Assembly (NCBI GenBank): GCA_016209275.1 | Contig: JACQWM010000004.1 | Location: 42,243-106,242, forward strand | Reading direction: 5' to 3' | Length of the DNA stretch: 64,000 nucleotides | DNA from: Candidatus Omnitrophota bacterium | GTDB lineage: Bacteria > Omnitrophota > Gorgyraeia > Aquiviventales > Aquiviventaceae | In this document: positions 17,394 to 51,244 of the stretch, piece by piece | Layout of the letters: each line of letters opens with the position of its first letter | Position numbering within the stretch: the first letter of the stretch is position 1 | Position numbers and translations under genes: made by a program | Notes under the pieces: generated by a model | What the model saw: only the letters and a program-made list of their open reading frames with translations | Database searches by the model: none | What the model was told of the DNA's origin: nothing

Positions 17394-17439
17394 GCGCGCG
17401 AGACGCACGCGACGTCCCATGCGATCTATCGCGGAGTTG

Positions 17440-24877: not shown

Positions 24878-24890
24878 GGGAGGAGAGCGC

Positions 24891-36076: not shown

Positions 36077-36082
36077 TCGCCC

Positions 36083-37147
36083 ATGATGACGAAGACGCGC
36101 TTTCTGAAGTTTGCGGTTGCGACGGTGATGATCTCCACGGTCCTGATCGTCGGCGCGCTCCTCGGGCTTGATCTGTGGTACCACAAACGGTTCGAAAAGG
36201 TCGCCGGAATGAACTGGCGGGGCTATCGCGGCCCGGTCGTCCATCGAAAACTCCCCGGGGAGCAGCGCGTCGCCGTCCTCGGAGGCAGCACGGCCTTTTG
36301 CTTCGGGGTCTCGGGCGCCGAGGCCTGGCCTGCGGCGCTGGAGCGGTCTGTGAATGCGCAGCGGCGAGCGCGCCACCAAGGGCCGGTGAGCATCGTCAAC
36401 TTGGGAGCATTGCATGTCGGCGCCTACTCATTTACCGACACCCTGCGCGATTACGCGTCGCTGGACTACGATGTGGCGCTCTTCTACACCGGCTACAACG
36501 ATCTGGGTGCGCCGAACATCCGAAATATTCGGCGGGAGTCGCCGCTCTTCCGGCTCACCGGCTATTACCCGATCCTGCCGCTCGTCGTCAAAGAAAAGCT
36601 GATGGCCCTTCGCTACGGAGGCAACTTGGAGGCCGCGTATCTCGCCGAGCAGGGCAAGCGCCCGACCTTCCGCCCGAATTATACGCAGGTGCAATCCTCC
36701 GAGGGTGCGCAGGCGGTGGCCGCCGTCAAGAAAGCGCTGCTCGAGTTTCCTGAAGAGGATCTGGTCGTGCACGGCGACCTGTCGCGCGCGCTGGGGGCGG
36801 TGAATGCCCAGCAGGTGCAGCTCGCCGCGGAGGGCTGCGGAGATCTGTGGGCCTTCTACTGTTGGTCGCTGGAGCGGGCGGTGAGCGTGGCACTCGATGA
36901 TGGCAAGACCGTGATGGTCGTCACGCAGCCGTATCTGTCTCCGCGCCATATCCAGCAGCAACAGGTGATGACGCGCCGGCTTCAGGAGCGATGGAAGGAT
37001 GATCCGCGCATTCAGTATGTCAACGTGGGGCAGACGGCGGATCTTCGGGATCCAGCGCTCTGTTTTGACGGCATCCACCTGACGGTGCAGGGCAACCAGC
37101 GGATCGCCGAAGCCCTAGTCGATCCGTTATTGCAGCGGCTTGATTGA
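36083..37147 (+). CDS. Membrane-anchored SGNH/GDSL-like hydrolase
   Basis: N-terminal TM helix, VAVLGGSTAFCFG (a GDS-like block I) and a later YTGYNDL block. Confidence 0.5.
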   Translation: MMTKTRFLKFAVATVMISTVLIVGALLGLDLWYHKRFEKVAGMNWRGYRGPVVHRKLPGEQRVAVLGGSTAFCFGVSGAEAWPAALERSVNAQRRARHQGPVSIVNLGALHVGAYSFTDTLRDYASLDYDVALFYTGYNDLGAPNIRNIRRESPLFRLTGYYPILPLVVKEKLMALRYGGNLEAAYLAEQGKRPTFRPNYTQVQSSEGAQAVAAVKKALLEFPEEDLVVHGDLSRALGAVNAQQVQLAAEGCGDLWAFYCWSLERAVSVALDDGKTVMVVTQPYLSPRHIQQQQVMTRRLQERWKDDPRIQYVNVGQTADLRDPALCFDGIHLTVQGNQRIAEALVDPLLQRLD

Positions 37148-37154
37148 GAGGGGC

Positions 37155-37316
37155 ATGATGAGCAAAGGACGCGTCCTTCGGGAATTTTGGCAGTTCCTCT
37201 GGCAAGAAAAAAAGTTCTGGCTGATTCCGATTGTGGTGGTGCTGGTCCTCTTCGGCGCGCTGCTGGTCTTTTCGCAAAGCAGCGCGGTGGCCCCCTTTAT
37301 CTACACGCTGTTTTGA
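37155..37316 (+). CDS. SxtK-like small membrane protein (53 aa; not in the supplied ORF track)
   Basis: MMSKGRVLREFWQFLWQEKKFWLIPIVVVLVLFGALLVFSQSSAVAPFIYTLF. Its stop overlaps the carbamoyltransferase ATG (TGATG). Confidence 0.45.
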   Translation: MMSKGRVLREFWQFLWQEKKFWLIPIVVVLVLFGALLVFSQSSAVAPFIYTLF

Positions 37317-39148: not shown

Positions 39149-39164
39149 CGAAAGGAGTCAGGGC

Positions 39165-39884
39165 ATGAGAACGCTGACCGGAATTTTCTTGGACACGGGC
39201 AAGCTGGAGGAAGTCCGCACCTACCATGAGCTTGGCATCATCCGCGGAGTCACGACCAACCCGACGATCCTCTGCAAGGAGGGGTTGACCGGCGGCTGGC
39301 CAGCCATTGAGCGGCGGTGCAAGCAGCTCGCGGCGCTGATTGATCCCTTGCCGCTGTCGGTCGAGGTGACCACGAACGATCCGGATGAGATGCTCGCGCA
39401 AGCGCTCCGTTTCAGATCCTGGGCGGAGAACGTCAACGTGAAAGTCACGATCCACGGCCCTGACGGCGGCACCGAGAACCTGAAACTCGTGCATCGGCTG
39501 GAGACCGAGGAAGATATCCGAGTGAATGTCACGGCGATGATGAGCGCGCAGCAGTGCCTGCTGGCCGCGCAAGCCGGGGCGACGTATGTCTCGCTCTTCG
39601 GCGGGCGGGTCAACAACATGGGCTACGACTCGCGATCGGAAGTGCGCCGCCTGCGGCAATTGCTGGATGCCTTCGAGAGTCCTGCCAAGATCATCGTGGG
39701 CTCAACCAGGGAAGTGCTCAACATCATTGAGTGGTTCGAGGCTGGGGCCGACATCGTCACGGCCGTGCCGCAGCTGCTGGAGGGCATGCTGGTGCATCCG
39801 TATAGCAAGGAAACGGTCCGCCAATTCCTGGCGGATGGCGCGAAGCTGCATCAGGCCATCCCGGAGCCGGCGATTGCGACATGA
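39165..39884 (+). CDS. Transaldolase / fructose-6-phosphate aldolase family (short type)
   Basis: FLDTGKLEEV...GVTTNPTIL motifs. An AAAGGAG Shine-Dalgarno lies 8 nt upstream. Confidence 0.75.
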   Translation: MRTLTGIFLDTGKLEEVRTYHELGIIRGVTTNPTILCKEGLTGGWPAIERRCKQLAALIDPLPLSVEVTTNDPDEMLAQALRFRSWAENVNVKVTIHGPDGGTENLKLVHRLETEEDIRVNVTAMMSAQQCLLAAQAGATYVSLFGGRVNNMGYDSRSEVRRLRQLLDAFESPAKIIVGSTREVLNIIEWFEAGADIVTAVPQLLEGMLVHPYSKETVRQFLADGAKLHQAIPEPAIAT

Positions 39885-40657
39885 GGCCTCATCTGGCGAG
39901 CGTGCGGCTGCTTCCGAGAAAATTGCTGTGGCGGGCCGCGCCCCGGCGCACGGTCCATGCCCGCGGGCTGCGGTTTACGCTGCAGTGCGATAATTGGATC
40001 ACGCACTACCGGTGGTCCACGTACAACACCAAGGAGCCTGAGACGCTGGACTGGATTGACCGGTGGATCCGCGATGGCGATACCTTCTTCGACATCGGGG
40101 CCAACATCGGCCTCTATACTATCTATGCGGCGCTGCGGCATCCTGCTGCGCGGATCATCGCGTTCGAGCCGGAGTACGCCAACCTGCACTTGCTGAGAGA
40201 TAATCTTATCCAGAACGGCGTGCACGATCGGGTGGAGGTCTATTCGGTCGCGCTCGGCAATCACACCGGCATCAGCCGGCTCCACATCCAGGATTTCACT
40301 CCCGGGGCAGCGCTCCATACGGAATCGCAAGCGCCCTTGCGCCGCACGAGAACGGAGCGCTCCGTCATCTGGCAGGAGGGCATCGGCACCTTTACGCTGG
40401 ATCAGTTTTGCGAAGAGACGCAGTGCGCGCCGACCTGCTTGAAAATCGACGTGGATGGGACCGAACGCGAAATTTTGGAGGGGGCGGCGCGGACGCTTCA
40501 GTCGACCGCGATGCGGTCGCTGATCGTCGAGCTCTCCGAGGAACCCTCCATCCGAGGGGCGTGCGAACGATTGCTGGCGACCGCCGGCTTGCGCCGCGAG
40601 ATGTCCTGGAGCCAGCCGGAGCGATGCGATAATCAACTGTGGGTGAGAAGCGCATGA
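39881..40657 (+). CDS. FkbM-family methyltransferase
   Basis: FFDIGANIGLYT...FEPE...LKIDVDGTE motifs. Confidence 0.7.
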   Translation: MRPHLASVRLLPRKLLWRAAPRRTVHARGLRFTLQCDNWITHYRWSTYNTKEPETLDWIDRWIRDGDTFFDIGANIGLYTIYAALRHPAARIIAFEPEYANLHLLRDNLIQNGVHDRVEVYSVALGNHTGISRLHIQDFTPGAALHTESQAPLRRTRTERSVIWQEGIGTFTLDQFCEETQCAPTCLKIDVDGTEREILEGAARTLQSTAMRSLIVELSEEPSIRGACERLLATAGLRREMSWSQPERCDNQLWVRSA

Positions 40658-41718
40658 CGCCGCTCGCCGGGCTGATCGCGGCACTGGCCCTCCTCGAGGG
40701 CATGGTTCGAGGTCTCCGTCGTGCTCGAAGCCTGACGTGGACATCCGCCCCGCCGCGGCTGCTGTCATTCCTGAGCCATCCCTACGCGCTCTATGTCCGT
40801 CGGCCGAACTGCGACGGGTTGTATCCGTCCAACAGCCTCGGCTATGCCGGCAAGCGCGAGTATCCGCCGGCTTGCCTGCCAGGAACGATCCGCATCTATT
40901 GCGTGGGCGGCTCGACGACCGAAGCGCATGATCCGGCTCAGGGACCGGATGCGAGCTGGCCTGGAAAATTGCAAGACCTGCTCGCGCAGCGGTTTCCTGG
41001 CACGGCATTTGAATGCATCAATGCCGGGACCGCCGGGTATACGTCTGCCGAGTCGCTCGCCGAATTCGCCTTTCGCGGGGTGGACCTGAAACCTGATCTG
41101 CTGGTGGTGTATCACAATGTGAATGATGCGTGGACCTGCCAAATGGTCGAGGGATTCCGCTCAGACTATTCCCATGCCCGACGCCATAAGCCTTGGGATG
41201 TCGGCTGGATCAACCGCTTGCCCCCGATCCCATGGTGGGCCGGCTATGAGCTCCTTCGAGGCTGGATTATGCGGAGGTGGGGCAAGGCGAATGCCCTAAT
41301 CTACTGGATCGCTGATCCACCGTGGCGATCCGCGCGGTCGTTTCAGCCGCAGGCCGTCGCCGCGTTTGAGCGAAATATCAGGAATCTCATCGCCCTCGCC
41401 ACGACCTGGGACTGCGTGCCGGTGCTCATCAAATGGGAGTGCGACTGGGCTGCGCGGCGCGTGCCGAATTACCTTGAGCCGCACCCAGAAACCGCCGAGG
41501 TCTATTTCCGCTATCTGCAGGCGAACAATGAGGCCTTGGCCCGGCTCGGAGCCGCGGTTCCAGGATGCCATTATCTCGATGTCGGGCCCTTCGACCCGGA
41601 GCATTTCTCAGACACGATTCACTTCAGCCCGCAGGGTCTTGAGGAAATGGCCAGGCGGGTGGCCGATGGATTACTACCGGTGGTCCAATCATTGATGGTC
41701 AGCGCAGGAGGCCGATGA
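40654..41718 (+). CDS. SGNH/GDSL-like hydrolase (second paralogue)
   Basis: IYCVGGSTT block I and VVYHNVNDAW block III, with an N-terminal hydrophobic segment. Confidence 0.5.
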   Translation: MTPLAGLIAALALLEGMVRGLRRARSLTWTSAPPRLLSFLSHPYALYVRRPNCDGLYPSNSLGYAGKREYPPACLPGTIRIYCVGGSTTEAHDPAQGPDASWPGKLQDLLAQRFPGTAFECINAGTAGYTSAESLAEFAFRGVDLKPDLLVVYHNVNDAWTCQMVEGFRSDYSHARRHKPWDVGWINRLPPIPWWAGYELLRGWIMRRWGKANALIYWIADPPWRSARSFQPQAVAAFERNIRNLIALATTWDCVPVLIKWECDWAARRVPNYLEPHPETAEVYFRYLQANNEALARLGAAVPGCHYLDVGPFDPEHFSDTIHFSPQGLEEMARRVADGLLPVVQSLMVSAGGR

Positions 41719-41835
41719 TGCGAGGATGGTGGGGTCGTCTCTGGGCGCGCGTGCGATCGCTATTCTCTCGGAAGAAAAAAACTGAGTCCGGCGCGCAGAA
41801 AAATATTTACCCCATGTGGTAGCCAGGGGATGCCG

Positions 41836-42732
41836 ATGACGACGCAAGAGTCTGTGACGAATACGGTGGCCCAGTTTTACCGGGCACTGCCGTTTAATTA
41901 TGAAGAGACGGTCGAGCAGACCTGCCAGACGATCACCGAGCGCAATCAAGTGGCGGAGGCATACCCGCCGCTTCATGCCCTGCTTCAGCGGCTTCGCGGC
42001 GCCTCGATCCTGGATGTCGGCTGCGGTGCTGGATGGTTCGTGAACACGGTGGCCTCCCACTACAAGGCTCGCGTATGCGGAGTCGACCTGTGCGAGCCGG
42101 CCTTAACGCGGGCGAGCGACGTGGCCGAGGCCCTTGGTCTTGCGGGTCGTGTGCAGCTGGCCTGTGCGGATCTCTTCGCCCTGGATCCTGCAGCGGTGTT
42201 TGGCCAAGCGGCGTTTGATGTCATCAACAGCCTCGGCGTGCTGCATCATACGCACGATTGCCGTGCGGCGGCGGCACGGGTCCTTCAGTGGGTGGCACCC
42301 GGCGGATGGGTGCATCTTGGGTTGTACCATCGCTACGGCCGCCAGCCGTTTTTGGATCTGTTTGAGCCGGCACGGCAGGCCCTGCGCGCGGCGGCCTCTG
42401 ATGCGCAGCGCAGCGCCATTGAGGAGGAGGCGTTTGCGCGCTACCGAAGGCTGCATGGCGCCTTCACCAGCGAGACCTTGCTGCGTTCGTGGTTCCGCGA
42501 TCAGGTGCTGCATCCGCATGAGTCCCAGCATACGTTTGAGGAGGTCCACGGGTGGCTGGCGGACGCAGGGTTCAGTTGCCGAGCGACGAGCCTGAATCGA
42601 TTCCAACCGACGACGGATTGGCGCGCGGTCATCGAGGAAGAACAAACGCTGTCTGATGTCTCGTACCAGCGCAACGTGAAACAACACCAATATTTTCCAG
42701 GATTTTTTGTGGTCCTTGCCCAGCGGCAGTAA
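41836..42732 (+). CDS. Class I SAM-dependent methyltransferase
   Basis: ILDVGCGAGWF motif I. An alternative start at 41830. Confidence 0.6.
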   Translation: MTTQESVTNTVAQFYRALPFNYEETVEQTCQTITERNQVAEAYPPLHALLQRLRGASILDVGCGAGWFVNTVASHYKARVCGVDLCEPALTRASDVAEALGLAGRVQLACADLFALDPAAVFGQAAFDVINSLGVLHHTHDCRAAAARVLQWVAPGGWVHLGLYHRYGRQPFLDLFEPARQALRAAASDAQRSAIEEEAFARYRRLHGAFTSETLLRSWFRDQVLHPHESQHTFEEVHGWLADAGFSCRATSLNRFQPTTDWRAVIEEEQTLSDVSYQRNVKQHQYFPGFFVVLAQRQ

Positions 42733-42744: not shown

Positions 42745-43599
42745 ATGCCAAAAACGATCACGGCTCGCCGGACCATCGTCCGTCGGGATGTTCCAAAAGC
42801 GCCTCACAGCCTGACGATCGCCCGGTCGTTGCGGGAACGGTTTCAGCGCCGGCAGCAGCTCTTCGGTGGCTGGATCTCGATCGGCCACCCGGAGACCGCG
42901 GCAATTTTTGCGCGGGCCGAGAATGATTTCATCGGCATCTGCATGGAGCACACGACGATTGACTTGGCCACGGCAGGGCAGATCATCCGGGCTTGCCATG
43001 AGTTTCGCAAAGCGTGCCTTCCTCGGATCTACGGCGGTGATCTACAGCAGGTCCGCCGCTTATTGGATGCGGGGGCTGACGGCATCATTGTGCCGCAGGT
43101 CAGCTGCCGGCAAGACATTGACCGGGTGCGGGACGCCATGTGGTATCCGCCGCAAGGCGCACGAGGCTTCGGCGTGGCGGCCGCCCAGGGGTATGGCCGC
43201 GATTTCAACGCGTATGTGCGCGGGGCGAACGAGGCGCTGTCGCTGATGATCCAGATCGAATCGATCGACGGAGTTGAGCGCATTCAGGAGCTCGTGACCC
43301 ATCCCGGCGTGGATGCGGTCATGGTCGGGCCGTACGATATTTCCGGCTCGCTCGGCCTTCCCGGCGAGCTGCAGCATCCGAAGGTGGCGGCGGCGTGCCG
43401 CCGCGTGATCGCCGCGTGCGCTGCGGCCGGAAAAAGTTGCGGCTATCAGTTGGTCTATCCTGATGCCAATGATCTCCGACGGGAATTTGAGGCCGGGTTT
43501 AGTTTCTTAGTGCTGGGCTCTGACGTGTTTAACTTATCGCATCGCAGCGAAGAAGTCGATCGCATGATCGCCGGGGTCAAGGGTCATGATCGCGCTTGA
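42745..43599 (+). CDS. HpcH/HpaI-family class II (pyruvate-dependent) aldolase
   Basis: The fold pattern of 2-keto-3-deoxy-acid aldolases and citrate lyase beta (GWISIGHPE...GADGIIVPQV...MIQIES). Confidence 0.6.
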   Translation: MPKTITARRTIVRRDVPKAPHSLTIARSLRERFQRRQQLFGGWISIGHPETAAIFARAENDFIGICMEHTTIDLATAGQIIRACHEFRKACLPRIYGGDLQQVRRLLDAGADGIIVPQVSCRQDIDRVRDAMWYPPQGARGFGVAAAQGYGRDFNAYVRGANEALSLMIQIESIDGVERIQELVTHPGVDAVMVGPYDISGSLGLPGELQHPKVAAACRRVIAACAAAGKSCGYQLVYPDANDLRREFEAGFSFLVLGSDVFNLSHRSEEVDRMIAGVKGHDRA

Positions 43600-44335
43600 G
43601 GATCGGTTTCGCCTGCGCGGGAAAATCGCCGCCATCGCCGGAGGCGAAGGCCAATTGGGTTCTGCCCTTAGCCGCGCCATGGCGGAATCCGGGATGACGG
43701 TCTACTCGTTGGATCGCGCGCGCGCCGGCATCCGGCGGCGCGAGGTGGCGTGGTTGCGGTGCAACGTGACCGAAAAACGCGATGTCATCGCCTGCCGCAC
43801 GGCGATCCTGAAGCGCCATGGGCGCATCGACGTGCTGCTCAATGCCGCAGGAGCCAATGCGCCGACACCGGCGCTGAAGATCACCGCGAAGGAGTTTCAC
43901 CGGATCGTTGATGTCAATCTCCTCGGCACGCTCTACGGCTGCCAGGTCTTCGGCGAGACGATGGTGAAGCAACGCTGTGGCAGTATCATCAATTTTTCTT
44001 CCGTCTCGCTCGGCCCTCCGCTCTCGAAGGCGTTTGCGTATTCGGCCGCCAAGGCCGGCGTGTACAATCTCACGCAAAATCTTGCGCGGGAGTGGGCGCC
44101 GTTTCAAGTCCGCGTCAATGCGCTGCGTCCGGGGTTCTTTCCCACCGCGTGGAGCTTGACGCATTTCATCGATCGCACGCGCAGGCGGGATATTCTCCGC
44201 CACACGCCGATGGGCCGGTTTGGGAAACCCGAGGAGCTGATCGGCGCCGTCCTCTGGCTGGCCTCGGATGCGGCAAGCTTTGTCACCGGCTCGCTGGTCA
44301 CGGTTGACGGCGGGTTTACCGCCATGACGATCTGA
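43586..44335 (+). CDS. SDR-family oxidoreductase
   Basis: KIAAIAGGEGQLGSAL Rossmann motif. YSAAK catalytic motif. Confidence 0.7.
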   Translation: MIALEDRFRLRGKIAAIAGGEGQLGSALSRAMAESGMTVYSLDRARAGIRRREVAWLRCNVTEKRDVIACRTAILKRHGRIDVLLNAAGANAPTPALKITAKEFHRIVDVNLLGTLYGCQVFGETMVKQRCGSIINFSSVSLGPPLSKAFAYSAAKAGVYNLTQNLAREWAPFQVRVNALRPGFFPTAWSLTHFIDRTRRRDILRHTPMGRFGKPEELIGAVLWLASDAASFVTGSLVTVDGGFTAMTI

Positions 44336-45087
44336 TGAAACGCACGCCGATGGTGGTGGCGGTCACCGGGGGAACGAGCGGCATCGGCTTGGCGGTCGCC
44401 GAGCTCTTCATGGCGCGAGGACACCCGGTGGCGGTCTGCTCGCGGTCCCCGCGGGCGAACGCGTTGCGATCAGCGATGGTCCATGTGCCGCTGGATGTCC
44501 GGCGGCGGGATGCGGTGGCGCAATTTGCCAAGGACGTGCGACAACGATTCGGAACCTTGGATGTGCTGGTCAATTGCGCCGGAGTCTCGCGTTGGCGCGC
44601 GATCACCGATGTGGATGAGGTGTTTGCAGAAGAATTGATCGGCACCAATCTGCTGGGAACGCTGTGGGGCTGCGCGGCGGCCGCGGCGGTGATGAAGCGC
44701 GGTGGGTGCATCGTGAATATCTCCAGCCTGGCGGGCAAGCGGGGCAGTGCCAACAATAGCGTCTACTGCGCGACCAAATTTGCCGTCAATGGCCTCACAC
44801 AAGCACTCGCCAAGGAGCTTGGGCCCCGCGGCATCCGAGTCAACGCGGTCTGCCCAGTGTATGTGGAAACCGAGCACGTTCTTCTATCGCTGGCCGATCC
44901 TGCCTCGCCGGCCGCCGGACGCAACGTGCGAACGTATTTGTCATCATTTGCCTCGACACAGACCGCCCTGGGCCGGCTGCCGACGGCGCGTGAAGTCGCC
45001 GAGGTCGTGTACTTTCTTGCGAGTCCAGCCGCCTCAGCGATCACCGGCCAGTGCGTGAATGTGGATTGCGGGGTGCTGCCCCAATGA
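44335..45087 (+). CDS. SDR-family oxidoreductase
   Basis: VVAVTGGTSGIGLAV Rossmann motif. YCATK catalytic motif. Confidence 0.7.
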   Translation: MKRTPMVVAVTGGTSGIGLAVAELFMARGHPVAVCSRSPRANALRSAMVHVPLDVRRRDAVAQFAKDVRQRFGTLDVLVNCAGVSRWRAITDVDEVFAEELIGTNLLGTLWGCAAAAAVMKRGGCIVNISSLAGKRGSANNSVYCATKFAVNGLTQALAKELGPRGIRVNAVCPVYVETEHVLLSLADPASPAAGRNVRTYLSSFASTQTALGRLPTAREVAEVVYFLASPAASAITGQCVNVDCGVLPQ

Positions 45088-45860
45088 GTGCTTTGCGCAT
45101 CGCCGCGATCATCCCGGCCCGCATGGCCTCCTCGCGCTTTCCCGGCAAGCCGCTGCTGGCGGTCAACGGGTTGCCGATGATTGAGCATGTGCGGCGCCGG
45201 ACCGCGCTGTGCGCCGGGTTTTCCGAAGTGATTGTGGCCACATGCGATCAGGCCATTGCCGAGGTGGTCAAGGCCTATGGCGGAATCTGCGTGATGACAT
45301 CACCGGAGCACCCGGCCGCATCGGATCGCGTGGCCGAGGCGATGGCGCAGCGTGACTGCACGCATGTGGTGAATGTGCAAGGGGATGAAATTTTGGTCTT
45401 GCCACATGATTTGCAGCGGATGGCCTCAGCCATCGAAGCCGCGCCCGAAGTTCCAGCCTGGAATGCGGTGGCCCGGATTGAAACTCGCGAGGAGCTCGGC
45501 GATCCCTCGGTGGTGAAGTGCGTGCTCTCAGGCTCCGGGCGGGTGTTGTATTGCGCGAGGGATTTCTCGGCGCTTGGAGTGCGGCGCGAAGAAGGCTATG
45601 AACCGGTGCGCCGGGTGCTCGGCATTCTCGGCTACCGGAGGGAATTTCTTCAGCGGTACGGCGAGCTTCCGCGCACACCGCTTGAGCGCGCAGGCTCCAT
45701 TGATCAAAACCGCATCCTGGAGCACGATGTGCTGTTGCAGGCGATTGAATTCACCCGAGGCTATCCTGGCATCAACGAGCCGCGCGAGGTCGCGGTGGTG
45801 GAGCAGCTCCTGAGGAGCGATGCGTCACAGCAGGGCGTCTTGCAGGAGATTCTCCGATGA
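45084..45860 (+). CDS. KdsB-like ulosonate cytidylyltransferase (CTP_transf_3)
   Basis: IAAIIPARMASSRFPGKPL N-terminal motif, near-identical to the KdsB/NeuA consensus. Confidence 0.7.
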   Translation: MSALRIAAIIPARMASSRFPGKPLLAVNGLPMIEHVRRRTALCAGFSEVIVATCDQAIAEVVKAYGGICVMTSPEHPAASDRVAEAMAQRDCTHVVNVQGDEILVLPHDLQRMASAIEAAPEVPAWNAVARIETREELGDPSVVKCVLSGSGRVLYCARDFSALGVRREEGYEPVRRVLGILGYRREFLQRYGELPRTPLERAGSIDQNRILEHDVLLQAIEFTRGYPGINEPREVAVVEQLLRSDASQQGVLQEILR

Positions 45861-46798
45861 CGCGGCCGGTGGTGTATGTGGCGTTGCAGCAGTTCTGCGA
45901 GGCGGATGACCGTCCGCGGCGTCTGCTGCAGGAAGCCGGTGTTGCCGTGAACGTCAACAGGCTTGGGCGGCGCATGAAGCGGGAGGATTTGCTGCGGGAA
46001 CTTCCAGGGGTCGATGCGGTGCTCGCCGGGATCGAGCCCTACGACGCCGAGCTGCTCGCGGCCTTGCCGCAGCTTCGGTGCATCAGCCGTTGCGGAGTCG
46101 GCACCGATGCGATTGATCTTGAGGCCGCACAGCGGCTGGGGGTTGCCGTGCTGACCACCGGAGATGAAGTCGTCGAGCCGGTGGCCCAGCTGACCATCGC
46201 CATGATGCTGGCACTCGCGCGCCAGATTCCTGAGCACCTTGCCGATGCGCGCCAAGGCCGATGGACGAAGCGGACCGGGGTGTTGTTGTCCGAATGGACC
46301 ATCGGCCTGGTGGGGTTTGGACGCATCGGGCGTCGTGTGGAGCAGTATCTGCGCCCGTTTCAGCCGACGGTGCTGGTGGCGGATCCGCAGGCCACGTCAA
46401 GCGAGCTTCCAAAATCGGTCCATCTGCGGTCGCTTGAGACGCTGTTGGTAGAGGCGGACTGCGTCTCGCTGCATGTCAGCCGGCCTCGAACTGAGGGTGT
46501 GGTGATCGGCCGCAAGGAGTTCGCGTTGATGAAGCCCGGGGCGGCGCTGATTAATACGTCGCGGGGCTATCTGGTGGATGAAGCCGCGCTGCATGATGCG
46601 ATCCAGGAGCACCGGCTAAGCGCAGCCGCGCTCGACGTCTTCGAGGCCGAGCCGCATGTCGGGCCGCTGGCAACGCTGCCCCAAGTCTTGTGTACTCCGC
46701 ATATCGGCTCCTTGACCCGTGCGTCACGCATGGCCATGGAGCAACGCTGCGCTCAGCACGTGGTCGACTTCTTCGCTGCCGCATCAACGCGACGATGA
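45857..46798 (+). CDS. D-isomer-specific 2-hydroxyacid dehydrogenase
   Basis: NAD-binding motif GLVGFGRIGRRV. ~313 aa. Confidence 0.75.
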   Translation: MTRPVVYVALQQFCEADDRPRRLLQEAGVAVNVNRLGRRMKREDLLRELPGVDAVLAGIEPYDAELLAALPQLRCISRCGVGTDAIDLEAAQRLGVAVLTTGDEVVEPVAQLTIAMMLALARQIPEHLADARQGRWTKRTGVLLSEWTIGLVGFGRIGRRVEQYLRPFQPTVLVADPQATSSELPKSVHLRSLETLLVEADCVSLHVSRPRTEGVVIGRKEFALMKPGAALINTSRGYLVDEAALHDAIQEHRLSAAALDVFEAEPHVGPLATLPQVLCTPHIGSLTRASRMAMEQRCAQHVVDFFAAASTRR

Positions 46799-49218
46799 CT
46801 CCGCGCGTGACTGTGCTCATGACCGTCTATAACGGCGTGCCCTATCTGCGAGAAGCGATTGACAGCGTCCTCGCGCAAACCTTCAGAGACTTCGAGCTGC
46901 TCATCATCGATGATGCCAGCACGGATCAATCAGCGGCGCGCATCGAGTCATTTGGCGATCCTCGGATTCGCCTCATCCGCAATCCCCGCAACCTCGGGCA
47001 AACGCCCTCGCTGAATCTGGGGATGGCCGAATCGCGTGGCCGTTACATCGCCCGGATGGATCAAGACGACGTGTGCCTTCCGGATCGGCTGCAGCAGCAG
47101 GTGGCGTGTCTTGATGCGCGGTCAGACGTGGCCGCCGTCGGCACCTGGGCCTTTCTCATCGGGCCTGAGGGACGCGCGACCGAGATGGTCGGAACGCGGG
47201 TGGATGAGTTCGGGACATTCCTCGGCATGACGCTGACATTCGCCTCGCCGATCGGCCATCCAACCCTGGTGATCCGCCGCGACGTGTTGGCAGCGTTTGG
47301 CGGATATGACGAGTCGTTTGCCCCGTGCGAAGATTACGCGCTATGGTGCCACTTGGCCGAGCGGCGCCACGGATTGGTCAGCATTCCTCGGCCGCTCATG
47401 AAGCTTCGGCGTCATGCGCAGCAGCAAAGCCGCGTGCGGCTGGCCGCGCAGCAGGCGCAGGGCAGGCGGGCGCATGCGCGGCTTCTCTCGGCCTGGGCAG
47501 ATGCCGAGCATCTCGACCTCATCAGCTCGCTGCTGCGCGGCGACGATGCCTTCTGGCAGGCGTGCCCAACGAAGCATGATGTGCGGCAAGCGCTAGCGGC
47601 ATGGAATCAGATGCGCACCACCATGACGGCTGCGCTGCGGCTCAGCCCCGAAGAGTCCGCACGGCTGAATCACCGCGTTCGGTGGTGGTTCGGCCACAAT
47701 GCGGCGTTTGCCGCCCTGCAAGGCAGGCGGCAGAGCCTTCCTCTCTATACGGCTTCCCTGGAGGGGGGAATCTCGATGCTGCGGTACCCTGCGGTGGCCT
47801 CGTATCCGGTGTTGCTGGCCGCCTCCCCATTGTTCGGGGCAACGCTCAGGAAGATCTGCAAAGACGCGGTGATGGCGTTGGGCCGTCAGAAGTATGTGGC
47901 TCGCCTGATGACACAGACGCTAAAAAATCGATGGCAATCGGCGCAAGCATCCGGAAGGGAAATTCTGTATGTGTCGTATGACGGCATGCTCGAACCCTTG
48001 GGGGCTTCCCAAGTCGTGAGCTACCTGCTGCCCATGGCCGTGACGCGCCGCATCACGCTGCTCTCGTACGAGAAGCCATCCGATCGCCGCGATGTCAGCC
48101 GATATGCGACGATGCGCCAGCGCCTGGAGGCTGCTGGTATTCGCTGGATTCCGCTGCGGTATCACAAGCGCCCGTCGCTGCTGGCCACCGGGTGGGATGC
48201 GCTCATCGGGATCATCGTCGGATGGATCGTCTGCCGGCGCCGCCAGATTCGGCTCATCCATGCGCGGGGGTATGTGCCGTCAGTGATTGCGCTCACACTC
48301 AAGCGCGCAACTGGTGCGCGCTTTCTCTTTGACATGCGAGGCTTCTGGCCGGAGGAAAAGGTCGATGCCGGCCATTGGCGCCGCGGCTCGCTGGCGTATC
48401 GCCTAACGAAATGGTGCGAGCGGAAATTTTTTGAGCAGGCGGACGCCATCGTCTCGCTCACGCACGCCGGGGTCAAGGCCTTCGACACGCTCGGCTATCA
48501 GATTCCGGCGGCAACCCCCATCGACGTCATCCCCACCTGCGCTGACACCTCGCGCTTTTCGCCGGAGGCAGCAGACCGTGATCTGCAAGCGCAGCTTGGC
48601 CTTCAAGGGAAGACCGTCATCGGCTGTGTTGGCACGTTGAGCAACTGGTATCTAAGAACACCGACGCTGCGTTATTGTTCGTTCTTGCTGCGGCACCTCG
48701 AGCATGCCGTCATCCTCTGCGTGACGCAGGAAGACCATGCGCAGCTGCGCCGAGATGCGCAGGCCGCCGGCATCCCGCCGGAGCGTTTCCGCTTGGCACG
48801 GGCGGCCTTTGAGCAGATGCCTGGGTATCTGTCCTTGATGCATGTGGGGGTCTTTTTCATCACGCCGACGTTTTCGAAAACGGCTTCAGCCGCCACGAAG
48901 CTGGCGGAATTTCTCGCCAGCGGGGTGCCGGTCGTGATCAACGACCTGATCGGGGATTCCGGAGGGGTGGTTCGCGAGCATCGCGTGGGCGTGGTGTTGC
49001 GCGACGTCGCCGAGCGCGAATGGACGGCGAGCCTGCAGGATGTCCAAGCACTGCTCGCCGATGCTGCCTGCGCGCGGCGGTGCCGAAACACCGCGCTGGC
49101 CCTGTTTGATCTGAGGGATGGCGTGAAGAAATATCTTGCCCTCTATGACCGATTCGCCGAAAATGTGGAGCCATTATCGGCTTCGGTGGTTCGACCTCTT
49201 GAGTGGGCCAAATCATGA
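46795..49218 (+). CDS. Two-domain glycosyltransferase: N-terminal GT2 (GT-A) and C-terminal GT4-like (GT-B)
   Basis: VTVLMTVYNGVPYL...IIDDASTD...DQDD (GT2), then a GT-B block ...GCVGTLSNWY...FLASGVPVV. Confidence 0.7.
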   Translation: MTPRVTVLMTVYNGVPYLREAIDSVLAQTFRDFELLIIDDASTDQSAARIESFGDPRIRLIRNPRNLGQTPSLNLGMAESRGRYIARMDQDDVCLPDRLQQQVACLDARSDVAAVGTWAFLIGPEGRATEMVGTRVDEFGTFLGMTLTFASPIGHPTLVIRRDVLAAFGGYDESFAPCEDYALWCHLAERRHGLVSIPRPLMKLRRHAQQQSRVRLAAQQAQGRRAHARLLSAWADAEHLDLISSLLRGDDAFWQACPTKHDVRQALAAWNQMRTTMTAALRLSPEESARLNHRVRWWFGHNAAFAALQGRRQSLPLYTASLEGGISMLRYPAVASYPVLLAASPLFGATLRKICKDAVMALGRQKYVARLMTQTLKNRWQSAQASGREILYVSYDGMLEPLGASQVVSYLLPMAVTRRITLLSYEKPSDRRDVSRYATMRQRLEAAGIRWIPLRYHKRPSLLATGWDALIGIIVGWIVCRRRQIRLIHARGYVPSVIALTLKRATGARFLFDMRGFWPEEKVDAGHWRRGSLAYRLTKWCERKFFEQADAIVSLTHAGVKAFDTLGYQIPAATPIDVIPTCADTSRFSPEAADRDLQAQLGLQGKTVIGCVGTLSNWYLRTPTLRYCSFLLRHLEHAVILCVTQEDHAQLRRDAQAAGIPPERFRLARAAFEQMPGYLSLMHVGVFFITPTFSKTASAATKLAEFLASGVPVVINDLIGDSGGVVREHRVGVVLRDVAEREWTASLQDVQALLADAACARRCRNTALALFDLRDGVKKYLALYDRFAENVEPLSASVVRPLEWAKS

Positions 49219-50123
49219 AGATTCTTGTGACGGGTGCTGATGGCATGGTGGGCAGCGCGCTCTGCCCTGAGCTGCGGCGGTGCGGACATGAGCTGATCCC
49301 GACGGATCTGGCTCCGCTGACCCCCGGCACGCAGGTTTTGGACATCTGCGATGCGGCGGCGGTGCGCGCGGCTGTTGAGCAGGCGAAACCCGCCCTGGTG
49401 GTTCATCTGGCGGCGGCGACGGACGTCGACCGATGCGAGCAGGAGCCATCCCTCGCCTATCGCGTCAATGCCGCCGGCACCGAGCATGTGATCAGTGCCT
49501 GCCGGATCGGGAAGGCCCGCCTGCTGTACATGAGCACGGCCGGGGTGTTCGACGGCGAGAAGCTCACACCGTATGTCGAAACGGACGCGCCCAATCCGGT
49601 CAATGTGTACGGACGCTCAAAGCTGATCGGAGAGCACGCCGTTTCGCAGTACCGCGGCAGGCATCAAATCGTTCGCGCGAGCTGGATGGTGGGAGGTTTT
49701 GCGCGGGACAAGAAGTTCGTGGCGAAGATTCTCCGGCTGTTGGAAGAGCGCCGAGAGCTCACGGTGGTCACCGATAAGATTGGCAGCCTCACGTTTACGG
49801 AAGATGTGTCCCGCGGTATTGCCGCGCTCATCGCCACCGACCATGCCGGCCTGTTTCACATGGCGAACCAAGGCGTCTGCTCTCGGTATGACGTGGCCTG
49901 TGAAATCGTGACGTCTCTTGGCCGAACCGACGTGACCGTCCGGCCGATTAGCTCAGATGCGTTTCCGTTGCCAGCGCCTCGGGCGGCTTCTGAAGCGCTG
50001 GCGAATGCCCGCTTGCAGGCCGTCGGGATGGATCAGATGCCGTCGTGGCAGACCTCATTGCGCCGGTATGTGCAGCGTTACATGGCGACCCTGAAAGGAT
50101 CCTCGTGCGCGTCCTCTTCGTAA
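49215..50123 (+). CDS. RmlD-like NAD(P)-dependent sugar reductase/epimerase
   Basis: MKILVTGADGMVGSAL N-terminus, typical of the dTDP-4-dehydrorhamnose reductase family. Confidence 0.6.
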   Translation: MKILVTGADGMVGSALCPELRRCGHELIPTDLAPLTPGTQVLDICDAAAVRAAVEQAKPALVVHLAAATDVDRCEQEPSLAYRVNAAGTEHVISACRIGKARLLYMSTAGVFDGEKLTPYVETDAPNPVNVYGRSKLIGEHAVSQYRGRHQIVRASWMVGGFARDKKFVAKILRLLEERRELTVVTDKIGSLTFTEDVSRGIAALIATDHAGLFHMANQGVCSRYDVACEIVTSLGRTDVTVRPISSDAFPLPAPRAASEALANARLQAVGMDQMPSWQTSLRRYVQRYMATLKGSSCASSS

Positions 50124-51244
50124 TTCCTCATCCGATCGAGGCCGCAAGCGGCCGCCTGCGGGTGTTGCAGTACTTGCCGTGGCTGCATGCGCAGGGCATC
50201 CAGTGCGAGGTCCGCCCGTTCATGCCGCCGGCGCTTTATCGGCTCCTGTATCAGCCTGGGCGGCTCCCGCAGAAAATTTCGATGAGCGCTGCAGCGGTGA
50301 TCCGTCGCTGCCTCGATGTGGGGCGCGTGGCGAAGGCCGACGTGGTGGTGGTCCATCGCGAAGCCTGGCCGCTGGGCACGGCGCTGCTTGAGCGGCTGAT
50401 GGCTCGGCGATCTTCCGCCATGGTGTTTGATTTTGATGATGCCATTTACCTTCCGCACGCGAGCCGGGTCAACGCGTGGGCGAACGTCTTCAAGCGTCCG
50501 GGAAAAATCTCCCAGGTCATTGCCGCCAGCACGCACGTCACGGCCGGCAATTCCGTGCTGGCCGGCTACGCCCGCCGGTACAACCCCAAGGTGAGCATCA
50601 TTCCCACGCCGGTCGATACCGAGGCCTTTCATCCGCGGCAGGCCAGGGTGGATTCGTCCCGGTTGGTGATCGGATGGATGGGGAGCCACACGACCGCCAG
50701 TTACTTGCAGGAAATCCGCCGTCCGCTTGAACAGCTCCTCCGAGCGCATCCGCAGGTCGAGCTTCGCGTGGTGGGAGCCGGGCATCTGCCGTATCGGCTG
50801 CCGAATCTCCAGGAGATTCCGTGGACGCTGGAATCCGAGCAACACGAGTTGCACCGGTTTGATATCGGCCTGATGCCCATGCCGGATGATCCCTGGACCC
50901 AGGGCAAATGCGGGTTTAAGGCCCTCCTCTACATGAGTGTTGGGATTCCTGTCGTGGCCTCGCCGGTTGGGGTCAACAGCGCGATCATCCAGGATGGGGT
51001 GTCAGGGTTTCTGGCCAACGATGAGCAGACGTGGTTCGATCGGCTCGCTCAGCTCATCGACGATGAAGCGTTGCGGCGCCGCATGGGGCGTGCTGGCCGC
51101 GCGATGGTCGAGCAGGAATATTCCGTCAAGGCCCAAGCGCCGCGCCTGATTCGCGTGCTCCGCGAGGCGCATGACGGGCCTCGGGGCGATGGCGTGCCTC
51201 TCAGCGAGCCGGTTCATGCGGGAGCGAGTCATGCCGCAGCCTAG
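50105..51244 (+). CDS. GT4-family (GT-B) glycosyltransferase
   Basis: C-terminal block GFKALLYMSVGIPVVASPVG...E...FDR of retaining GT-B enzymes. The GTG start was chosen by alignment to typical N-termini. Confidence 0.6.
   Translation: MRVLFVIPHPIEAASGRLRVLQYLPWLHAQGIQCEVRPFMPPALYRLLYQPGRLPQKISMSAAAVIRRCLDVGRVAKADVVVVHREAWPLGTALLERLMARRSSAMVFDFDDAIYLPHASRVNAWANVFKRPGKISQVIAASTHVTAGNSVLAGYARRYNPKVSIIPTPVDTEAFHPRQARVDSSRLVIGWMGSHTTASYLQEIRRPLEQLLRAHPQVELRVVGAGHLPYRLPNLQEIPWTLESEQHELHRFDIGLMPMPDDPWTQGKCGFKALLYMSVGIPVVASPVGVNSAIIQDGVSGFLANDEQTWFDRLAQLIDDEALRRRMGRAGRAMVEQEYSVKAQAPRLIRVLREAHDGPRGDGVPLSEPVHAGASHAAA

Follow-up and report, generated by a model that had tools for sequence, protein, structure and literature searches.

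We propose, with a probability of roughly 0.45, that a conserved gene cassette in an uncultured Omnitrophota bacterium makes a CMP-activated 2-ulosonic acid other than Kdo for a surface glycan, and that it would do so by a pyruvate-aldol route. The window analyzed is a 64,000-nucleotide stretch of contig JACQWM010000004.1. Five plus-strand ORFs lie at 42745-46798 and encode, in order, an HpcH/HpaI-family aldolase (42745-43599; Pfam PF03328 HpcH_HpaI, 9.6e-30), a classical SDR, here SDR a (43586-44335; adh_short_C2, 5.2e-48), a second, SDR b (44335-45087; adh_short_C2, 1.6e-53), a KdsB-type cytidylyltransferase (45084-45860; CTP_transf_3, 1.3e-38), and a D-2-hydroxyacid dehydrogenase of the PGDH/glyoxylate-hydroxypyruvate reductase type (45857-46798; 2-Hacid_dh_C, 1.1e-48, and 2-Hacid_dh). 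ORFs and Pfam/NCBIfam matches confirm these families, as named in the first-pass annotation; judged by profile score, matches of 1e-30 to 1e-53 on long ORFs are far past chance level. Each gene adjoins the next or overlaps it by 1 to 14 nt, and the set hence resembles one translationally coupled unit. The cytidylyltransferase ORF opens at 45051, and its ATG at 45084, the start assigned earlier, is correct, overlapping the stop of the preceding SDR gene as ATGA. The first-pass annotation took the five genes to be the whole module. That view has to be widened, as the conserved unit extends upstream (28094-42732). The cassette, itself conserved, spans about 28094-51244, with the five genes as its 3' half, and its other members include a transaldolase, a GmhA-like isomerase, a HAD phosphatase, a GFO oxidoreductase, methyltransferases and GT-B proteins.

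The genes for the aldolase and the KdsB-type enzyme are conserved as a pair and inherited together. Relatives of the aldolase occur in at least 433 species-representative genomes, a count of aldolase relatives in which the KdsB-like gene was checked for in only part. By tblastn, 63 of the 85 loci fetched (>15 phyla) have a KdsB-like gene no more than 10 kb from the aldolase relative. ORF calling found both genes in 56/76 loci, and in 55 of the 56 the partners share a strand and are 1 to 6 genes apart. Pairwise distances among the aldolases correlate with those among the KdsB-like proteins (Spearman 0.45), and 0 of 999 Mantel permutations reached the observed value. The association claimed in the first-pass annotation is thus borne out. 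Both genes were present in loci from Omnitrophota, Planctomycetota, Elusimicrobiota, Acidobacteriota, Cyanobacteria (Prochlorococcus), SAR11, Bacteroidota, Nitrosomonas/Nitrosospira, Actinomycetota, Saccharibacteria, one archaeon and others. Throughout the loci examined, the pair sits in surface-glycan clusters. Catabolic neighbors elsewhere, a possibility raised earlier, were not seen, as no hpa/gar/rhm-type operon surrounds the pair in any fetched locus.

The aldolase is proposed, from its sequence, to form the C–C bond. HpcH-family enzymes join pyruvate or hydroxypyruvate to aldehydes, giving 4-hydroxy-2-oxo acids. Residues H69, R94, E172 and D198 of this class II (metal-dependent) pyruvate aldolase align with H49, R74, E153 and D179 of YfaU, and the catalytic His, Arg, Glu and Asp do not vary in 30 homologues. 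Scores fall far below the cutoffs of the NCBIfam equivalogs GarL (143 against 407), HpaI (139 against 369) and RhmA (105 against 441). A protein 100% identical to the window aldolase is already known from a Candidatus Omnitrophica MAG; database entries of the HpcH family include YfaU, GarL, HpaI and a hydroxyketoacid aldolase. By analogy with the Kdo route, which uses the PEP-dependent synthase KdsA, the cassette appears to have a pyruvate aldolase in the same place. The earlier observation that no KdsA/NeuB-type synthase is adjacent also holds over a larger distance, with none within 13 kb in the window and no KdsA or NeuB within ±10 kb in type A loci.

The remaining cassette genes described here all lie on the plus strand. 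The type 3B transaldolase-family enzyme (39114-39884; TAL_FSA, 6e-36) matches transaldolases in the PDB at about 111 bits versus 47 bits for FSA, and shares Glu, Lys and Phe with T. acidophilum TAL (E60, K86, F132) rather than having Gln/Tyr as in FSA; by sequence it is of the transfer type, and it is proposed to supply or extend a ketose phosphate. Its gene is present in 29/85 loci, immediately 5' of the aldolase gene in most type A loci. The GmhA-like SIS_2 sugar-phosphate isomerase (34327-34959; SIS_2, 1.9e-08) scores far under cutoff against gmhA TIGR00441 (57 bits) and is found in 28/85 loci; as an analogue of KdsD/LmbN, it would convert ketose phosphate to aldose phosphate. At 30208-32322, a GmhB-like HAD-IIIA phosphatase (the N-terminal about 180 aa) is fused to a GT-B-fold domain that has no family assignment, and this protein is proposed to be both a sugar-acid phosphatase and a glycosyltransferase. 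The transaldolase, isomerase and phosphatase would provide the aldose-phosphate source and phosphatase that the earlier model lacked. Two further conserved members are a GFO/IDH/MocA oxidoreductase (32319-33356; Pfam GFO_IDH_MocA domains), seen in 32/85 loci and invariably in the order GFO-MT-SIS, and a Methyltransf_23-like methyltransferase (33347-34330; Pfam, 9.6e-07), of a type that adjoins GFO and SIS in 24/85 loci. A 705-aa protein of TagF/TarL-like GT-B fold (28094-30211) is a candidate transferase with a cytidine-nucleotide donor.

Between these and the five-gene block, the Pfam matches and ORF list give lineage-specific tailoring genes, for a methyltransferase (34869-35687), an SxtJ-like protein (35684-36076), a protein without family assignment (36083-37147; ORF list), a DUF5989-like protein (37140-37316), a carbamoyltransferase (about 37316-39148), an FkbM methyltransferase (39881-40657), a GDSL/SGNH protein (40639-41718) and another methyltransferase (41830-42732). 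The lineage-specific genes of 34869-42732 occur in L001 and L005, which are the nearest relatives, and not in most type A loci. Downstream assembly genes (46690-51244; Pfam) encode a GT2-GT4 fusion glycosyltransferase, RmlD and a GT1-type glycosyltransferase, in an order identical in L001 and L005; RmlD is bona fide (rmlD TIGR01214, 265 bits, cutoff 224).

Among the oxidoreductases, SDR a is closest to models of sugar-acid C5 oxidoreductases (D-mannonate oxidoreductase, gluconate 5-dehydrogenase and KduD), with all NCBIfam scores under cutoff (NF006132, 220 bits; NF006070, 187; KduD, 154), and is proposed to tailor a hydroxyl of the free acid. SDR b has generic matches (glucose-1-DH/acetoin-reductase-like) and might be a partner for epimerization by oxidation and re-reduction, or carry out a keto reduction. 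SDR a accompanies the aldolase in 48/85 loci, and SDR b in 44/85, each time together with SDR a. The two SDRs are optional: SDR a is missing from L001 and L002, and L001, the nearest relative of all, lacks both. The 2-hydroxyacid dehydrogenase scores 207 bits against PGDH TIGR01327, under cutoff, and its closest PDB structure is M. tuberculosis PGDH (155 bits). It is found in 48/85 loci and co-varies with the HAD phosphatase; donor supply and 2-keto/2-hydroxy interconversion are candidate roles.

A different picture emerges in 14 to 16 related loci (type B), in which a KdsA paralogue lies immediately 5' of the aldolase gene. Carriers include Prochlorococcus, SAR11, Flavobacteria, Legionella and Nanopelagicus. 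The paralogue scores above the KdsA equivalog cutoffs and is cassette-specific, with KDCRS replacing KANRS in 15 of 16 proteins. Loci with it have no SIS isomerase (0/14, versus 21/42 without it), no HAD phosphatase (0/14 versus 26/42) and almost no 2-hydroxyacid dehydrogenase (1/14 versus 31/42). This exclusivity reads as two alternative keto-acid routes that share the aldolase, in which case the enzyme could act in tailoring; it is not safe to regard it as the only C–C bond-forming step everywhere, and in type B it may tailor the acid instead of making it.

Extended to all loci, the idea that another front end makes the keto-acid and the HpcH enzyme only tailors it is rather unlikely, though it accounts for several observations. 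In type B this front end would be the KdsA paralogue, which is PEP-dependent; for types A and C, an aldose phosphate would be converted to an aldonate (GFO, lactonase) and then to a 2-keto-aldonate (2-hydroxyacid dehydrogenase). The HpcH enzyme would reset C4 (or C3) by reversible retro-aldol/aldol reaction or enolization, before the SDRs and CMP activation. Consistent with this, the 2-hydroxyacid dehydrogenase and HAD phosphatase co-vary, the GFO family includes aldose 1-dehydrogenases (with a weak Gfo6 match), and a Glucosamine_iso/6-phosphogluconolactonase-family gene is present in type C loci and in some of type D. Together, GFO, the dehydrogenase and the lactonase-like protein of type C could yield a 2-keto-aldonate with no need of an aldolase. 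Control of C4 stereochemistry by HpaI-type aldolases is poor, which also fits. The sister relation of the window's KdsB-like protein to those of type B counts against the pyruvate-aldol route. However, L007 and L030 (GFO-SIS-HpcH-KdsB-like, with full flanks) have neither a 2-hydroxyacid dehydrogenase nor KdsA/NeuB, so the 2-keto acid there could be created by the aldolase alone. The shortest contiguous strings, SIS-HpcH-HAD-KdsB-like in L009 and L011, likewise suit a synthase role, and we know of no precedent for an epimerase-only aldolase in sugar-nucleotide pathways. Overall, linkage, glycan setting and intact aldolase residues partly support the pyruvate-aldol route suggested in the first-pass annotation, while KdsA in type B leaves the role of the aldolase ambiguous.

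The cytidylyltransferase is a candidate for CMP activation of the product acid. In NCBIfam it groups with KdsB models, not with PseF (35 bits), scoring above cutoff for NF003952 (208 bits, cutoff 193) and below for NF009905 (223, cutoff 255) and the kdsB equivalog TIGR00466 (131, cutoff 155). It retains the P-loop and QGDE motif (Q98, D100), i.e. the CTP and Mg motifs. Asn (Asn-Glu) takes the place of KdsB's second metal-binding Asp, a point against the favored route. The sugar pocket is altered. In E. coli KdsB, the Kdo C5-OH is bound by Y185 and Q98, and H181 is an active-site residue; in the window protein H181 is V and Y185 is L, and both are replaced in 61/61 cassette KdsB-like proteins. 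With these Kdo contacts missing, the substrate is probably not Kdo. It is accordingly improbable that the protein is a capsule-type CMP-Kdo synthetase acting on ordinary Kdo, with the aldolase, SDRs and dehydrogenase making an unrelated component. That reading draws on the closest PDB structure, E. coli KpsU (1GQ9, 140 bits), on the one KdsB subfamily cutoff passed, on KdsA in type B loci, and on the housekeeping KdsA, KdsC and KdsD that Gram-negative hosts possess. Besides the pocket and the equivalog score, the strict HpcH(-SDR-SDR)-KdsB-like order across phyla argues against it, as does the cassette's presence in one Saccharibacteria and one archaeal MAG, where Kdo synthesis would not be expected.

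Still less probable is that the aldolase, the dehydrogenase and a methyltransferase produce a 3-deoxy-aldonic (hydroxy-acid) acyl group carried on legionaminic acid, whose complete pathway is encoded 15 to 25 kb upstream in the window. Pseudaminic acid on Treponema denticola flagellin bears a 2-methoxy-4,5,6-trihydroxyhexanoyl group (PMC13439194), a chain that would formally equal pyruvate plus glyceraldehyde after 2-keto reduction and O-methylation, and methyltransferases flank the five-gene module. Nevertheless, this would leave the tightly linked KdsB-like gene unexplained, the block contains no acyl-activating enzyme (ligase, ACP, CoA-transferase), and within 10 kb NeuB occurs in 5/85 loci and a NeuA-type gene in 10/85. 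The nearest NeuB (18207-19268) has its own NeuA/PseF-type CMP-transferase (16644-17393), which also speaks against the possibility, raised earlier, that it supplies the KdsB-like enzyme's substrate; a second NeuB in the window (59622-60524) is truncated. A catabolic sugar-acid module (GarL/HpaI/RhmA-like aldolase plus dehydrogenases) inside a glycan cluster by chance is extremely improbable: the named families closest to the aldolase and SDR a are catabolic, but every equivalog score is far under cutoff, a catabolic operon's transporter, dehydratase, kinase and regulator are all lacking, the genes look translationally coupled to the cytidylyltransferase, and the neighbors in 85 loci (glycosyltransferases, methyltransferases and nucleotide-sugar enzymes) already contradict it.

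In the pyruvate-aldol route that we favor, the transaldolase-family enzyme and GmhA-like isomerase would yield an aldose phosphate. LmbR and the GmhA-like LmbN reportedly build an octose 8-phosphate, in work by Sasaki et al. in JACS in 2012. LmbR is listed as a lincomycin transaldolase (PMC12945683). The aldolase would then condense the aldose phosphate with pyruvate (or hydroxypyruvate) to a 4-hydroxy-2-oxo sugar-acid phosphate, candidate chain lengths for the product acid being C8 to C11, and the HAD phosphatase, in the window fused to its GT-B domain, would remove the phosphate. The two SDRs could reset hydroxyl stereochemistry or oxidation state of the free acid, with possible further tailoring by GFO, the 2-hydroxyacid dehydrogenase, and methyl- and carbamoyl-transferases, before the KdsB-like enzyme forms the CMP-acid and GT-B or GT2-GT4 proteins transfer it. 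A literature search found no study of the cassette and none linking HpcH aldolases to ulosonic acids or CMP-sugars, in keeping with the earlier view that such a route lies outside the established pathways. The series isomerase-aldolase-phosphatase-cytidylyltransferase would mirror KdsD-KdsA-KdsC-KdsB, with the pyruvate aldolase as the difference, in a cassette that is conserved and horizontally mobile.

The five genes at 42745–46798 (+) are real, and each encodes a protein with a strong family match. The first ORF is the HpcH/HpaI aldolase (Pfam PF03328, 9.6e-30, residues 43–266), and the last is a D-2-hydroxyacid dehydrogenase (2HADH; PF02826, 1.1e-48; PF00389, 6.3e-22); between them lie two classical SDRs (family matches of 5e-48 and 2e-53) and a KdsB-like cytidylyltransferase (45084–45860 (+); CTP_transf_3, 1.3e-38). 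The ends of all five genes touch or overlap. The ATG at 45084 and the stop codon of the preceding SDR share the sequence ATGA, which bears out the start assigned to the cytidylyltransferase in the first-pass annotation. That annotation treated the five genes as a module. The genes stand, but their extent does not, as the actual unit is about three times larger and widespread. We refer to this larger conserved unit (~28094–51244) as the cassette.

The window is a continuous plus-strand glycan-biosynthesis array of ~62% G+C. All credible genes in 1–64000 (~58) lie on the plus strand, mostly abutting or overlapping, and GC skew is positive throughout, making this an unusually long co-directional super-cluster. 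At 18–8618 there is a separate modified (heptose or 6-deoxy) sugar set, with a HAD/PNK-like phosphatase, epimerases, an RmlC-like cupin, a GHMP kinase, a sugar C-methyltransferase (Methyltransf_13/14), a SPASM radical SAM enzyme, a GNAT protein and an aminotransferase. A complete ptm/legionaminic-acid-type nonulosonic acid pathway occupies 13573–28133. It comprises two oxidoreductases of the GFO/IDH/MocA family (GFO), a PseF/NeuA-type CMP-transferase (16644–17393), an SDR, a NeuB with a SAF domain (18207–19268), a NeuC-type 2-epimerase, a PglD-like acetyltransferase, a HisF/HisH fusion, a CBS-nucleotidyltransferase, a 4,6-dehydratase and an aminotransferase. Proteins without a family match are found among these genes (8615–11870, 12512–13573, 14573–15661, 21134–22096 and 23648–24877).

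Between this set and the five-gene block are a 705-amino-acid protein, a fusion of a HAD phosphatase with a 520-amino-acid domain, a GFO, a methyltransferase, a GmhA-like isomerase (SIS), further methyltransferases, an SxtJ/DUF5989/carbamoyltransferase trio, a transaldolase-family gene, an FkbM methyltransferase and a GDSL hydrolase. The trio (35684–39148) resembles saxitoxin-type O-carbamoylation genes and consists of an SxtJ-like gene (35684–36076), a 58-amino-acid DUF5989/SxtK-like membrane peptide (37140–37316) and a carbamoyltransferase, which probably starts at ATG ~37316 rather than TTG 37187; the trio recurs in locus L005. Downstream of the block come a GT2–GT4 fusion, a bona fide RmlD, a GT1, a TPR protein, AsnB and then a truncated second NeuB (59622–60524; 300 amino acids, no SAF domain, 267 bits to the NeuB model versus a cutoff of 400). 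Ahead of this NeuB lie a PseC/LegC-like aminotransferase, a dehydratase-like SDR and a GT2, and behind it (to 62620) comes a KedN5-family B12-dependent radical SAM C-methyltransferase; no dedicated CMP-transferase for it is visible up to the end of the window. Since none of the related loci has a counterpart, we rejected this second NeuB as a general synthase partner, although it may act locally.

The 705-amino-acid protein (28094–30211 (+)) and the 520-amino-acid domain, which is fused to a GmhB-like HAD-IIIA phosphatase (30208–32322 (+)) and belongs to no assigned family, have no sequence matches in Pfam, NCBIfam or the PDB. Their AlphaFold models are confident, with two Rossmann-like domains and a structural match to GT-B enzymes, and the model of the 705-amino-acid protein lies nearest TarL and TagF, both teichoic-acid polymerases, and CMP-bound Bcs3. 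In seven loci, the 705-amino-acid protein adjoins an aminotransferase upstream of the cassette. The 520-amino-acid domain is elsewhere free-standing or fused to a GT2 or a polysaccharide deacetylase, and is annotated as 'hypothetical protein' everywhere. Either GT-B protein could transfer the activated acid.

In the aldolase, H69 and R94 match the catalytic His49 and Arg74 of YfaU, E172 and D198 match its metal ligands Glu153 and Asp179, and all four residues are invariant across 30 homologues. Scores against the NCBIfam equivalog models reach about one-third of what is needed (GarL, 143 versus a cutoff of 407 bits; HpaI, 139 versus 369; RhmA, 105 versus 441), placing the protein below the cutoff of each of these characterised groups, and NCBIfam holds no dedicated model for its subfamily. 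By sequence, this class II pyruvate aldolase is intact and forms part of a distinct subfamily; it belongs to the HpcH/HpaI superfamily but to none of the orthologue groups characterised there. An identical (100%) protein is encoded on a 162-kb contig of a Candidatus Omnitrophica MAG, and metagenomes contain many relatives at 35 to 70% identity.

To assess conservation of the gene neighbourhood, we scanned one genome per species. At least 600 stretches matched, at least 433 of which encode a relative of the aldolase. We then analyzed 85 loci (the best 80 of the at least 433 with 10-kb flanks, plus five from a protein collection) by tblastn with all proteins of the window. The KdsB-like gene lies beside the aldolase in 63/85 loci, followed in frequency by the 2HADH and the first SDR (48/85 each), the second SDR (44/85), GFO (32/85), the transaldolase (29/85), SIS (28/85) and the adjacent methyltransferase (24/85). 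Clustering of ORFs refined these counts: the KdsB-like gene is present in 56 of the 76 loci with a called aldolase ORF, and in 55 of these 56 the two share a strand and lie 1 to 6 genes apart. Moreover, aldolase distances correlate with KdsB-like distances (Spearman 0.45; Mantel 0/999). Carriers include Omnitrophota, Margulisbacteria, Planctomycetota, Elusimicrobiota, Acidobacteriota, Aminicenantes, Desulfobacterota, Bacteroidota, Prochlorococcus, SAR11, SAR116, SAR324, Legionella, Methylobacter, Halopseudomonas, Nitrosomonas/Nitrosospira, Actinomycetota, Saccharibacteria, Dehalococcoidales, Campylobacterota and one archaeal MAG.

NeuB is rarely nearby (5/85). The first-pass annotation had allowed that the KdsB-like enzyme might activate a nonulosonate made by the upstream NeuB. 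We rule out this partnership, given the rarity of NeuB near the cassette and the presence of a PseF/NeuA-type CMP-transferase within the legionaminic-type set, which provides that NeuB with its own activating enzyme. The absence of an adjacent KdsA- or NeuB-type synthase, on which the original proposal was based, was confirmed: there is none within 13 kb of the KdsB-like gene in the window.

Four gene orders recur among the loci. Type A, represented by the window, reads [HAD + GT-B domain]-GFO-methyltransferase-SIS-transaldolase-HpcH-HAD-SDR-SDR-KdsB-like-2HADH, and neither KdsA nor NeuB is found within ±10 kb in any locus of this type. Two loci (L009, L011) carry the bare string SIS-HpcH-HAD-KdsB-like. 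Type B (Prochlorococcus, SAR11, Flavobacteria, Legionella, Methylobacter, Nanopelagicus) reads KdsA paralogue-CBS protein-HpcH-SDR-SDR-KdsB-like-GT-B domain; the 520-amino-acid domain accompanies types A and B alike. Type C (Nitrosomonas/Nitrosospira) reads KdsB-like-HpcH-2HADH-epimerase-HAD, followed in most, not all, by a Glucosamine_iso/6-phosphogluconolactonase-family gene. Type D (Draconibacterium, Desulfamplus) reads 2HADH-GFO-SIS-SDR-DHQS-like-YhcH-NeuA-type CMP-transferase-HpcH. In the type D loci L054, L060 and L067 (~2–11 kb), the CMP-transferase that accompanies the aldolase is of the NeuA type and not the KdsB type. These loci also encode a 3-dehydroquinate-synthase-like enzyme, a YhcH/DUF386 protein and a putative cyclase, and both Draconibacterium loci (L054, L060) contain a Maf-like (MptE-like) gene. 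Culturable carriers include Halopseudomonas aestusnigri (type A), Nitrosospira sp. Nsp11 (type C), Aquirufa sp. and Tabrizicola sp. (type B-like) and Draconibacterium mangrovi (type D).

The KdsA paralogue of type B sits just upstream of the aldolase (~1.3 kb) and scores above the KdsA equivalog cutoffs. It was found in L021, L023, L024, L029, L031, L033, L034, L036, L037, L040–L042, L049, L051 and L062. In 15/16 copies, the hallmark KANRS is replaced by KDCRS (full motif KSCYDKDCRSS), and these KDCRS paralogues span Cyanobacteria, Proteobacteria, Bacteroidota and Actinomycetota. Downstream lies a stand-alone CBS-pair protein resembling the KpsF/KdsD C-terminus. These features suggest that this cassette-specific paralogue uses an aldose phosphate other than A5P. 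Type B loci (e.g. L029, 493–5359) also encode an FkbH-domain protein, a 401-amino-acid SDR extended at its N-terminus and a polysaccharide biosynthesis protein of the TIGR04417 'PFTS motif' family, which hint at a glyceryl- or acyl-type decoration.

What does the cassette make? We infer a pathway with the logic of Kdo synthesis (isomerase, C–C synthase, phosphatase, cytidylyltransferase) in which a pyruvate aldolase would serve as the synthase. An aldose phosphate would be formed by the transaldolase and the GmhA-like isomerase, pyruvate or hydroxypyruvate would be added by the aldolase, the phosphate would be removed by the HAD enzyme, the free acid would be adjusted by the SDRs, and the KdsB-like enzyme would produce the CMP-acid. 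The transaldolase-family enzyme scores ~108 to 112 bits to type 3B transaldolases versus 47 bits to fructose-6-phosphate aldolase (FSA), and when aligned to 3S0C it retains the Glu, Lys (Schiff base) and Phe corresponding to TacTAL E60, K86 and F132, not the Gln/Tyr of FSA. The SIS isomerase is a distant relative of GmhA. One of the SDRs has as its nearest relatives enzymes that oxidise C5 of hexonates and KDG; the SDRs are probably optional tailoring enzymes, since the closest relative of the window locus (L001, aldolase 71% identical) lacks both. Genes for methyl, carbamoyl and acyl tailoring are lineage-specific additions. The gene set is compatible with acids as short as C8, as stereoisomers of Kdo, and as long as C10 or C11. 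The pyruvate-aldol route to an ulosonic acid put forward by the first-pass annotation is hence a reasonable hypothesis, supported in part. We assign a probability of roughly 0.45 to the aldolase acting as synthase of the keto-acid, our confidence being held in check by the KdsA paralogue that lies upstream of the aldolase in type B.

That paralogue is central to the best-surviving alternative, which we consider rather unlikely, namely that the aldolase tailors an acid made by another front end, resetting its stereochemistry by reversible cleavage and re-addition. The keto-acid would then come from the KdsA paralogue, or from an aldose phosphate converted to an aldonate (by the GFO and a lactonase-like protein) and on to a 2-keto-aldonate (by the 2HADH). 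The 2HADH is nearest to phosphoglycerate dehydrogenases and glyoxylate/hydroxypyruvate reductases (155 bits to 1YGY) and falls under all equivalog cutoffs. The distribution of genes is consistent with alternative front ends: SIS is found in 0/14 loci with the KdsA paralogue versus 21/42 without, the HAD phosphatase in 0/14 versus 26/42, and the 2HADH in 1/14 versus 31/42. This mutual exclusion looks like two front ends feeding a common aldolase-SDR-KdsB-like back end. However, L007 and L030, which have full flanks, read GFO-SIS-HpcH-KdsB-like and lack 2HADH, KdsA and NeuB, so that only the aldolase could create a 2-keto acid there.

Another possibility is that the KdsB-like enzyme is a plain CMP-Kdo synthetase. 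Among NCBIfam models, the protein groups with those for KdsB and not PseF (35 bits to the PseF model). It passes one KdsB subfamily model, NF003952 (208.3 versus a cutoff of 193), and misses both the kdsB equivalog TIGR00466 (130.9 versus 155.2) and NF003948 (149.8 versus 281). Similarity is greatest to E. coli KpsU, at ~35–40% identity by a rough reading of the alignment, and the N-terminal PARxxSxRxPGKPL nucleotide loop of the CTP_transf_3 fold is present ('IIPARMASSRFPGKPL' aligns to KpsU). An alignment of 61 KdsB-like proteins from cassettes with two canonical sequences shows that the nucleotide loop and QGDE (Q98, D100) are retained. In E. coli KdsB, the C5 hydroxyl of Kdo is hydrogen-bonded by Q98 and Y185, and H181 is in the active site (PMC12199768). 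In 0/61 cassette proteins is there a His or Tyr at the H181/Y185 columns of the canonical K-H181-x-G-I-Y185-x-Y-R, and the window protein reads RVLGILGYR instead. With both the equivalog score and the Kdo-site residues failing to match, the protein falls outside the KdsB equivalog family, strictly defined. We infer that its pocket no longer matches Kdo around C5, and regard the CMP-Kdo synthetase alternative as improbable.

The second metal site of the KdsB-like proteins (window 45084–45860 and L001–L085) covaries by clade. The metal-binding Asp (E. coli D235; KpsU D225) is replaced by Asn then Glu ('GINEP') in the window clade and all of type B; the other clades keep Asp, as Asp-Arg or Asp-Thr in one major clade. 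Neighbour joining places the window's clade as sister to type B, and type C groups with the remaining type A. A search of a plasmid collection with the KdsB-like protein returned canonical kdsB/kpsF/kdsA contexts only.

We give still less weight to the idea, modelled on the T. denticola flagellin glycan, that the product is a hydroxy-acid acyl substituent. Catabolism can be set aside with near certainty: no hpa, gar or rhm context surrounds the aldolase in any of the 85 loci, where its neighbours are always glycosyltransferases, methyltransferases and sugar-nucleotide enzymes, and this removes the first objection anticipated by the first-pass annotation, a catabolic aldolase with catabolic neighbours elsewhere.

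To our knowledge, every established route to Kdo, Kdn, Neu5Ac, legionaminic acid and pseudaminic acid uses a PEP-dependent synthase of the KdsA or NeuB type. The cassette shares with the Kdo pathway (KdsD, KdsA, KdsC, KdsB/KpsU) the four-step logic and three superfamilies (SIS isomerase, HAD-IIIA phosphatase and CTP_transf_3). It differs in that its proposed C–C enzyme is a class II pyruvate aldolase rather than a PEP enzyme of the DAHP/KDO8P-synthase fold, its isomerase is GmhA-like (SIS_2 without CBS) rather than KdsD, its cytidylyltransferase lacks H181 and Y185, and transaldolase, GFO, SDR and 2HADH steps are added. NeuB-type pathways (Neu5Ac, Kdn, Leg, Pse; NeuA/LegF/PseF) likewise make a CMP-activated 2-keto-3-deoxy acid for surface glycans, but NeuB is unlinked to the cassette, whose CMP-transferase is of the KdsB rather than the NeuA/PseF type. 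Catabolic HpaI, GarL, YfaU/RhmA and hydroxyketoacid aldolases share the fold and the catalytic His/Arg/Glu/Asp (~100 to 108 bits to PDB members); the cassette aldolase, in contrast, occurs in a biosynthetic glycan context and presumably takes a sugar (phosphate) as acceptor in place of a short aldehyde-acid.

A further parallel comes from lincomycin synthesis, where LmbN, a GmhA-like isomerase, builds an octose 8-phosphate together with LmbR. LmbR is listed as the transaldolase and LmbK as the phosphatase of this pathway (PMC12945683). The cassette likewise pairs a transaldolase with a GmhA-like isomerase in a specialised sugar pathway, followed by a phosphatase. Whereas the lincomycin aldose phosphate is C1-activated as a GDP-sugar, that of the cassette would be lengthened with pyruvate, and activation would give a CMP-acid. 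Ulosonic acids other than Kdo and the nonulosonic acids are also displayed by bacteria, though these are known as structures only. Dha and Ko, from LPS and plant RG-II, are examples. Another is the 4-deoxy-2-hexulosonic acid of the E. coli K3 capsule (PMC10433991), which we dropped as a candidate product because simple aldol addition does not yield a 4-deoxy acid.

In the full-text library searched, we found no paper on the cassette or linking HpcH-family aldolases to Kdo, ulosonic acids, CMP-sugars or cytidylyltransferases. The cassette is best described as ulosonic-acid synthesis and CMP activation with a different C–C bond-forming enzyme and a re-shaped activating enzyme. The finding is real. 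More tentatively, the cassette may represent an unrecognised, widespread bacterial (and in some cases archaeal) class of surface sugars, in which CMP-ulosonic acids are made via a class II pyruvate aldolase and, where the cassette is complete, from an aldose phosphate extended by the transaldolase and isomerase. The latter would yield C9 to C11 acids or non-Kdo C8 stereoisomers and constitute a third entry beside the KdsA and NeuB types.

Ulosonic acids such as Kdo, sialic, legionaminic and pseudaminic acids are key to the bacterial surface, to recognition by phages and the immune system, and to the assembly of flagella. If true, the pairing of a pyruvate aldolase with a KdsB-like enzyme would be a new biosynthetic entry to this group, probably leading to one or more new sugars. 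The enzymes would also serve biocatalysis, in aldol synthesis of higher sugar acids and as a CMP-transferase with new specificity. The analysis flags three families without annotation: the 520-amino-acid GT-B domain (F11), the 705-amino-acid TagF-like protein and the KDCRS KdsA paralogue. The cassette is present in at least several hundred species, including the most abundant bacteria of the sea (Prochlorococcus, SAR11), nitrifiers and little-known candidate phyla. The surface chemistry of these carriers is almost unexplored, and it bears on their interactions with phages and grazers.
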